A stretch of 64,000 nucleotides of DNA from a virus. The position numbers and the translations under genes are program-made. Below, in pieces: positions 8,114 to 8,575 of this stretch (positions within the stretch are counted from its first letter, which is position 1; the number at the start of each line of letters is the position of its first letter). A model generated the notes under the pieces. The model was not told where the DNA came from. It was given only the letters and a program-made list of their open reading frames with translations, and did no database searches. The stretch is taken from positions 1 to 64,000 of IMG/VR virus record IMGVR_UViG_3300045988_074321, one strand, 5' to 3'.

Positions 8114-8575
8114 ATGATAAATGTAGACGAATTAAGAAACAAAAAGTAGCTCGGAGAAATAGGAGAGCGTATAGCCATTGGTGAATTATCAAAATATGGA
8201 TTAGATATTTTATTACCAATGTCTGACAATCTACCATTTGATTTTGTTATATATTATAATAACAAGTTTTACAGAACTTAGGTGAAAACTACTGCGAGTA
8301 AAACTGTAAATAACTCGTTGAACTTTAGTTTAACAAGTAATAATTATAACAAAGGGACCGTTCACAAATACAACGAGGATGAAATAGATATTATGATATG
8401 TTGCGACCTTCATAACATCTATATATTTCCAGAATGTGATGTTGCTAATAGAAATTCTATTACTATTAGGGAGGAACCTCCAGCTAATAATTAGACAAAA
8501 GGTATAAACTTTGCAAAAGATTGCATCATATCTATAGAAAGATTAAATTATACTTTCTCTAAGATAGAGAAATAA
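8114..8575 (+). CDS. PD-(D/E)XK-like nuclease family protein with 3 in-frame TAG codons (8147, 8279, 8492), read as Gln
   Basis: single frame ATG(8114)..TAA(8573) with only TAG interruptions; GE.GERIA...D..PFDFV...RT-Q-VKT gives D...QxK motif; track sees only the 8282..8494 fragment; 16-bp palindrome hairpin right after TAA. Confidence 0.5.

Follow-up and report, generated by a model that had tools for sequence, protein, structure and literature searches.

The closest solved relative of the endonuclease described here is I-Ssp6803I (2OST), the PD-(D/E)XK homing endonuclease of the group I intron in the Synechocystis tRNA-fMet gene. Phage tRNA clusters harbor a free-standing counterpart in SegB of T4 and T6, a GIY-YIG enzyme that causes the tRNA region to be inherited preferentially when infections are mixed (PMC2330249). 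SegB homologs are significantly co-located with tRNA genes and show no preference for a tRNA isotype. Recoded phages offer further comparisons. In Agate phage, a group I intron endonuclease located in the early region favours the reassigned stop codon, and Borges et al. proposed that recoding blocks endonuclease production until late infection (bioRxiv 10.1101/2021.08.26.457843). The Zeta crAss-like phages combine a forward block of replication genes and tRNAs with a reverse structural block, and they possess suppressor tRNAs, a tRNA block, and several homing endonuclease genes that differ between very similar genomes (PMC12386605). In that paper, the Zeta endonucleases are left untyped, and no connection is drawn to individual tRNAs or to recoding.

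We analyzed a window of 64,000 nt, positions 1 to 64,000 of the IMG/VR record IMGVR_UViG_3300045988_074321. By layout, the window phage fits the Zeta crAss-like description (contigs of 180-190 kb, NrdD ~70% identical to that of crAss-like phages), and its close relatives were contigs of 180-193 kb from human gut samples. Judging from these comparisons and from the codon usage examined below, it is a large (~186 kb) crAss-like gut phage that reads TAG as Gln. The gene of interest lies in an array of about 25 tRNA genes on the + strand. It is preceded by tRNA-Arg(UCU) (7943-8015) and tRNA-Lys(UUU) (8022-8095, 71.8 bits), the latter ending 18 nt upstream and forming the candidate target region, and is followed by tRNA-Pro(UGG) (8648-8721, 66.4 bits), all on the + strand. 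A sequence-only reading of the window had placed the gene between tRNA-Lys and tRNA-Pro and had counted three in-frame TAGs in it, and both statements were correct. The ORF (8114-8575, + strand) runs from the ATG at 8114 to a TAA stop at 8573-8575 and has 153 sense positions, giving a product of 153 aa with TAG as Gln. The three TAGs occupy codons 12 (8147-8149), 56 (8279-8281), and 127 (8492-8494); they account for all three Gln codons of the gene, and a frame scan of the ORF detected no in-frame TAA or TGA and no frameshift. The read-through peptide was ...DNLPFDFVIYYNNKFYRT-Q-VKT..., just as quoted in that reading.

The read-through protein matched PF11645 (PDDEXK_5) with E = 2e-23 and 83.2 bits against a Pfam cut-off of 26.1, the alignment pairing residues 9-136 with profile positions 2-134 of 138. 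When solved relatives were sought by sequence, the sole significant one was 2OST, and the aligned region paired D43 and Q56-V-K58 with the D and Q-V-K of the crystallized enzyme. An AlphaFold2 model built from 40 homologs had a mean pLDDT of 89.6 and a pTM of 0.84. Structural comparison of this model with Foldseek returned the four chains of I-Ssp6803I as the top matches (E = 1e-8, TM 0.68-0.73), followed by EcoRV, archaeal Hjc resolvases, and SPARDA nuclease domains. In the model, D43 is located immediately before strand 44-48, Q56 and K58 lie on strand 51-59, and E15 and E18 are found on helix 10-26. D43, Q56, and K58 were invariant across 120 homologs, with E15 present in 112 and E18 in 116 of them (E15 was invariant in the 40-sequence alignment), and the V-Q-x-K sequence was kept in standard-code homologs from cultured phages. 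The PHROGs match was to an unnamed family only, and no NCBIfam model for the product was found.

These searches upheld the earlier assignment to the PD-(D/E)XK-like nucleases, for which a family search against Pfam and PDB and a comparison with Hjc or related enzymes had been proposed: the Pfam family and 2OST were both recovered, and Hjc appeared among the structural matches, after 2OST and EcoRV. The proposal that one TAG occupies the Gln of a putative D...(E/Q)xK motif also stood, as that residue, Q56, aligned with the Q of QVK in 2OST. We considered D43...Q56-x-K58 to be the putative catalytic motif. By profile match and predicted fold, the product belongs to the I-Ssp6803I-like (PF11645) homing endonucleases, with a presumed nuclease activity and a presumed target site.

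The resemblance to I-Ssp6803I thus covers the PF11645 profile (83 bits), the fold (TM ~0.7), the D...QxK arrangement, the length (153 versus ~150 aa), and the association with a tRNA gene; in both proteins, a Gln is found where most PD-(D/E)XK enzymes carry Glu or Asp. However, sequence identity is only ~20%, and the settings differ. The phage gene is free-standing, 3' of tRNA-Lys(UUU), and requires UAG suppression, whereas I-Ssp6803I is intron-encoded inside tRNA-fMet on a cyanobacterial chromosome. I-Ssp6803I acts as a tetramer that makes site-specific double-strand cuts in a long pseudo-palindromic target, and the phage protein may do likewise.

The distribution of the gene was examined in relatives anchored on the upstream gene 6921-7880 (84-100% identity), which yielded 27 loci with the tRNA array. 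The gene was present in 11 of these and absent from 16. Where both tRNAs were present, tRNA-Lys and tRNA-Pro were separated by 552 nt in carriers of the gene and by 53-91 nt in loci lacking it. The relative L031 carried an exact empty site, reading ...AACTTTA, then GCCCTATTAATAGGG, then TAGTC..., and comparison with it delimited an inserted segment of 476 nt on the + strand (8102-8577), in which the ORF is preceded by 12 nt of leader and followed by 2 nt. In L049, 14 nt of the ORF survive as a deletion remnant. Other relatives possessed frameshifted alleles (L113, L115, L116, L117, L145, and L151) or in-frame deletions (L001, L021, L023, and L026). The tRNA-Pro(UGG) sequence was the same in the aligned relatives of the window's flank type, both with the gene (L026, L027, and L044) and without it (L030 and L031).

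The sequence-only reading had also described a palindrome after the TAA of the gene. The palindrome (TCCCTATTAATAGGGA, 8577-8592) does follow the stop codon, inside an inverted repeat at 8576-8593 on the + strand (TTCCCTA-TTAA-TAGGGAA) that precedes the T-run GTCTTTTTCTTTT and was scored as terminator-like, but it is not the gene's own, since the empty site of L031 has it too. This comparison assigns the terminator-like hairpin to the tRNA array rather than to the mobile gene. Sequence identity among relatives resumed right after the hairpin. We rejected the palindrome as a part of the mobile element or as a general target, given its presence at the empty site and its absence from a carrier of the L039 type.

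The segment from tRNA-Arg to tRNA-Lys (window 7881-8593) varied as a whole cassette among close relatives, with at least five forms among phages with near-identical flanks. Within these forms, the PD-(D/E)XK gene was always linked to one pair of tRNA-Arg and tRNA-Lys alleles, and the gene-linked tRNA-Lys allele was 61% identical to the alternative allele. Intact, decaying, and absent copies occurring side by side, with swapped flanks, are what a homing endonuclease gene usually leaves behind. At this locus the pattern would reflect cleavage of alleles lacking the gene, followed by gene conversion. Cassette variants were seen in L028, L030, L037, and L046 around positions 5000-5800; in one form, tRNA-Arg and tRNA-Lys are separated by an HNH-type ORF, and another form contains a small ORF of 240 nt. 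In L001, the tRNA-Lys beside the gene (~9916-9982) lacks 7 nt of its anticodon arm and was missed by ARAGORN, and the adjacent endonuclease has three small in-frame deletions; these changes could be either real decay or an assembly artefact.

A DNA-level search of annotated phages returned unannotated fragments only. A scan of bacterial and archaeal genomes gave three matches, two of which were this same phage binned into MAGs; the third was on an 8.5-kb contig from a Bacteroidota MAG, where no tRNA lay closer than 1.5 kb. The 186,052-bp contig DXLM01000001.1 (L241), labelled 'Bacteroides sp.', and the 153-kb contig CALEBD010000406.1 (L240), from a 'Clostridium sp.' bin, are probably phage contigs binned as bacteria.

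To describe the tRNA linkage, 60 homolog loci from viral and metagenome collections were grouped into 31 clusters at 80% protein identity. A tRNA-Lys(UUU) gene lay directly upstream, ending within ~75 nt, in 17 of the 31 clusters. This count includes L138, in which the tRNA and the extrapolated start overlap by 12 nt, and L006, in which an N-terminal helix-turn-helix extension puts the called start 69 nt from the tRNA. The same tRNA was directly downstream, starting within 11 nt, in three further clusters. Among the 18 clusters with any tRNA directly upstream, it was Lys(UUU) in 17, which corresponds to p = 1e-14 when the clusters are treated as independent and compared with the 13% share of Lys(UUU) among all tRNAs in the same loci; common descent, and not repeated homing, could account for part of the linkage, which weakens this value. 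About a third of the clusters were not next to tRNA-Lys, and two of the 31 had no tRNA within 2.5 kb. The downstream neighbor was variable (Pro, Met, Ser, Thr, Asn, Trp, Ile, Val, or Tyr).

The tRNA-Lys genes adjoining homologs were only 58-74% identical to each other across phages, so the gene is linked to tRNA-Lys(UUU) in general rather than to one allele. The idea of one fixed tRNA-Lys allele travelling with the gene was discarded on this basis. Likewise, the window tRNA-Lys allele was no closer to other gene-adjoining tRNA-Lys genes than the unlinked allele was. When the gene-adjoining tRNA-Lys genes were searched for a shared target motif, nothing was found beyond the anticodon loop and the T-loop. 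More distant PF11645 genes in cultured phages were also located beside tRNA genes, near Gly and Ile in My1, after Asn in PM10, and between Arg and Val in Sf-FR1, and diverged PF11645 paralogs within the phage group were found between two tRNA-Tyr genes or beside tRNA-Ser. Paralog positions were 909-1310 in L236, 13248-13631 in L001, and 18568-19014 in L002. From these neighborhoods, it is a reasonable inference that the whole PF11645 family has a tropism for tRNA genes. We found no published statement of such a tropism for PF11645, the closest being the SegB study, which concerns another fold. Like SegB of T4 and T6, the phage gene is a free-standing endonuclease gene between phage tRNA genes; unlike SegB, it encodes an unrelated catalytic fold, its subfamily is tied to tRNA-Lys(UUU), and it is TAG-recoded, whereas SegB genes use the standard code and SegB has no isotype preference.

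The comparison with SegB raises the alternative that the nuclease has been domesticated and is kept for recombination or amplification of anti-defence tRNA genes, for the exclusion of co-infecting relatives, or for the degradation of host DNA. Strong purifying selection, an intact copy in most carriers, and the occurrence of PF11645 homologs inside tRNA clusters of the unrelated cultured phages My1, PM10, and Sf-FR1 would all agree with this, and SegB, the GIY-YIG enzyme of T-even tRNA clusters, amplifies tRNA genes and thereby escapes the Septu defence. However, presence and absence among near-identical phages, the empty site, the deletion remnant, and the independently broken alleles fit a dispensable selfish gene. 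We consider domestication rather unlikely as an explanation of its own, and the two roles are compatible, SegB being a homing endonuclease as well. Our preferred reading, to which we assign a probability of roughly 0.8, takes the ORF for an intact homing endonuclease gene that is free-standing, belongs to the I-Ssp6803I family, and lies in a crAss-like phage in which TAG specifies Gln.

This reading requires that the three TAG codons be translated as Gln. Codons were compared on DNA, since code 15 may already be built into database translations. Relatives 50-70% identical (L006, L008, L009, and L010) carried CAA or CAG at the TAG codons under the standard code: codon 127 was CAA in all four, and codon 12 was CAA in L009 and L010. 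Codon 56 was CAG in relatives 85-91% identical (L039, L020, and L127). Across the 120 homologs, the column was Q in 71 at codon 12, in 120 at codon 56, and in 111 at codon 127. The assignment TAG = Gln, as first proposed from the window sequence, is shown directly, because relatives carry CAG or CAA at the same codons, and these comparisons establish that UAG is decoded as Gln in this phage. The diverged PF11645 paralogs of L236 and L002 likewise encode their catalytic Gln by TAG.

The same coding was observed in a second free-standing endonuclease gene of the array, an I-TevI-like GIY-YIG gene at 21864-22499 on the + strand (PF01541, 49 bits; TIGR01453, 76 bits), which starts 20 nt after tRNA-Cys and contains six in-frame TAGs. 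Six of its eight Gln codons are TAG, and codons 36, 119, and 152 are CAG or CAA in 69%-identical relatives. Taken together, the two endonuclease genes write 9 of 11 Gln codons as TAG, as against 0 of 417 in the 71 neighboring early-block ORFs, which contained no internal TAG. The TAG share in the two genes was marginally higher than the 49% of late genes (p = 0.03). This is marginal support for selection of TAG itself rather than of Gln, and we make no such claim.

If the gene were a decaying pseudogene, the three TAGs would be true premature stops. Under the standard code the ORF is indeed broken three times, and alleles clearly degraded by frameshifts and deletions exist in some relatives. 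However, all in-frame stops are TAG and occur without frameshifts. From the stop-trinucleotide frequencies of the window, the probability of this is ~0.02 for the three stops of the ORF and ~1e-5 for the nine stops of both endonuclease genes, PF11645-type and GIY-YIG, and the pattern of TAGs in the ORF is therefore beyond chance. Each TAG is also located on a conserved Gln column, with TAG and CAG swapping between close relatives, and the same phage has 16-20 TAGs per large structural gene and a suppressor tRNA. Over the whole frame, dN/dS was 0.03-0.08 (0.026 for the comparison with L039 and 0.077 for that with L002, synonymous sites being close to saturated), so the region downstream of each TAG is translated. 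Thus, the comparative data place the reading frame across all three TAGs under strong purifying selection. An identical intact product of 153 aa was found in 26 retrieved loci, some of them drawn twice from one contig. The dN/dS values, the type of stop codon, and the exchange of TAG and CAG led us to reject the pseudogene account as extremely improbable, and the comparative evidence indicates that the gene at 8114-8575 is real and functional.

A suppressor tRNA with anticodon CUA, needed for translating the three UAG codons, is encoded at 1939-2011 on the - strand. It was closest to the window tRNA-Gln(UUG), with 71% identity and a common U1-A72, G2-C71, D-arm, and 3' end, and these features suggest that it is charged with Gln. 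ARAGORN labelled this tRNA 'tRNA-Pyl', and a second tRNA of the window has a UUA anticodon (CUA in one relative), so that UAG might stand for another residue such as pyrrolysine or be merely a leaky stop. We give this very little credence, as 'tRNA-Pyl' is the ARAGORN default for a CUA anticodon, the CUA tRNA shares acceptor and D-arm features with the phage tRNA-Gln, and the TAG columns are Gln, written CAA or CAG, in relatives of both endonuclease genes; moreover, TAG-to-Gln recoding was verified by metaproteomics in other crAss-like phages (PMC9523058).

An endonuclease encoded in a group I intron splitting a tRNA gene, as in I-Ssp6803I, would agree with the characterized member and other PF11645 genes lying in group I introns of cyanobacterial tRNA-fMet genes and with the tight flanking by tRNA genes, but it is hardly tenable and was rejected, since the tRNA-Lys and tRNA-Pro genes are complete and continuous, Rfam searches (whole window at gathering score, 7700-9800 at E <= 1) returned only tRNAs and chance matches and no group I intron model, and an insert made of the ORF with 12 nt before and 2 nt after is too short to hold a ribozyme as well. 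No intron was detected, both flanking tRNAs are whole, and the gene is free-standing.

The use of TAG follows the block structure of the genome. In L234, a 186-kb contig of the same phage, structural-block genes contained 16, 5, 20, and 20 in-frame TAGs; TAG made up about half of the Gln codons in this block (49% for late genes), and the early block was almost without TAG. The suppressor tRNA lies outside the array and on the other strand, in the orientation of the TAG-rich structural block. No promoter was predicted between tRNA-Lys and the ATG at 8114. Because no promoter of its own was predicted and the gene begins 18 nt after tRNA-Lys, it is probably co-transcribed with the tRNA array.

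We considered that expression and homing could proceed as follows. The gene would be transcribed with the array, and the host release factor would halt translation at codon 12 until the Gln-like suppressor tRNA(CUA) became available. Active enzyme would then be made only once TAG decoding was on, as for the TAG-rich structural genes; since the neighboring early genes have no internal TAG, it is translation of the endonuclease that probably waits for the suppressor. Its expression would accordingly be late and suppressor-gated, as the distribution of TAG suggests. During mixed infection, the enzyme, which like I-Ssp6803I is probably oligomeric, would cut genomes lacking the gene in or next to tRNA-Lys, and repair from the carrier genome would copy in the gene and the neighboring tRNA alleles. 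Like the Agate endonuclease, this is a homing endonuclease in an early region written with a reassigned stop codon; in Agate, TGA is Trp and the gene is intron-encoded inside a protein-coding gene, whereas here TAG is Gln and the gene is free-standing in a tRNA array. The locus would thus be a second independent case of an early-region selfish nuclease written in late-gene code, and suppressor-gated endonuclease expression thereby becomes testable. Delayed translation is also reportedly known for I-TevI of T4, which would be a comparable case.

The gene is one more member of an established family, and its phage is of an already described recoded type. What it adds is the free-standing, tRNA-Lys-linked habit and the TAG-only Gln coding common to the GIY-YIG gene of the array. 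A broader reading joins these strands: the subfamily would have left intron life and would home to the 3' flank of tRNA-Lys(UUU), sister subfamilies would use Tyr, Ser, Asn, or Arg/Val tRNAs, PF11645 would be specialised for tRNA genes, and the late-gene TAG dialect, including the catalytic Gln in three paralogs, would gate the nuclease. We hold this combined reading tentatively, at somewhat less than even odds.

Because the catalytic-site codon is TAG here and CAG in close relatives, the gene by itself gives a clean proof of TAG = Gln in this phage, and standard-code annotation will miss or fragment such TAG-recoded genes. The I-Ssp6803I family, hitherto represented by a single intron enzyme from cyanobacteria, is widespread in free-standing form in phage tRNA clusters. 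It may be a natural source of new PD-(D/E)XK endonucleases with long targets, the target probably lying in or near a tRNA gene, and tRNA-linked endonucleases would help to explain the mosaic tRNA arrays of phages. None of these results overturns current understanding.

Several minor features of the window were also recorded. Among the 71 early-block ORFs, TAG was the stop codon of four (2876-3322, 24675-25256, 27087-27761, and 28218-28643); a TAA or TGA followed only 2-8 codons on, and suppression would therefore add only a short tail. Near the suppressor tRNA, two small ORFs contained internal TAGs, two in 239-631 (+ strand) and four in 2150-2551 (- strand). Both were called as genes in L234 (10575-10967 and 8669-9070, respectively), and ORF 239-631 had no Pfam match. 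The tRNA with the UUA anticodon (5196-5266) would read UAA, the commonest stop codon here, and a RAGATH-14 RNA (4963-5169, 156.6 bits) lies 27 nt upstream of it. Its anticodon is UUA in L234 and L235 and CUA in the close relative L236, so that a second suppressor-like tRNA toggles between the two. Within the tRNA array, the ORF at 17316-17726 matched the tRNA ligase cyclic phosphodiesterase domain (PF08302, E = 2e-7), which hints at tRNA repair. The 210-nt stretch from tRNA-Pro to the first tRNA-Tyr (8722-8932) had no ORF of at least 70 aa and no Rfam match; it was kept in L033, where it directly follows tRNA-Lys, as tRNA-Pro is missing. A tmRNA was found at 25529-26093 (62.6 bits) within the array, and a tmRNA was also present in the more distant relative L002.
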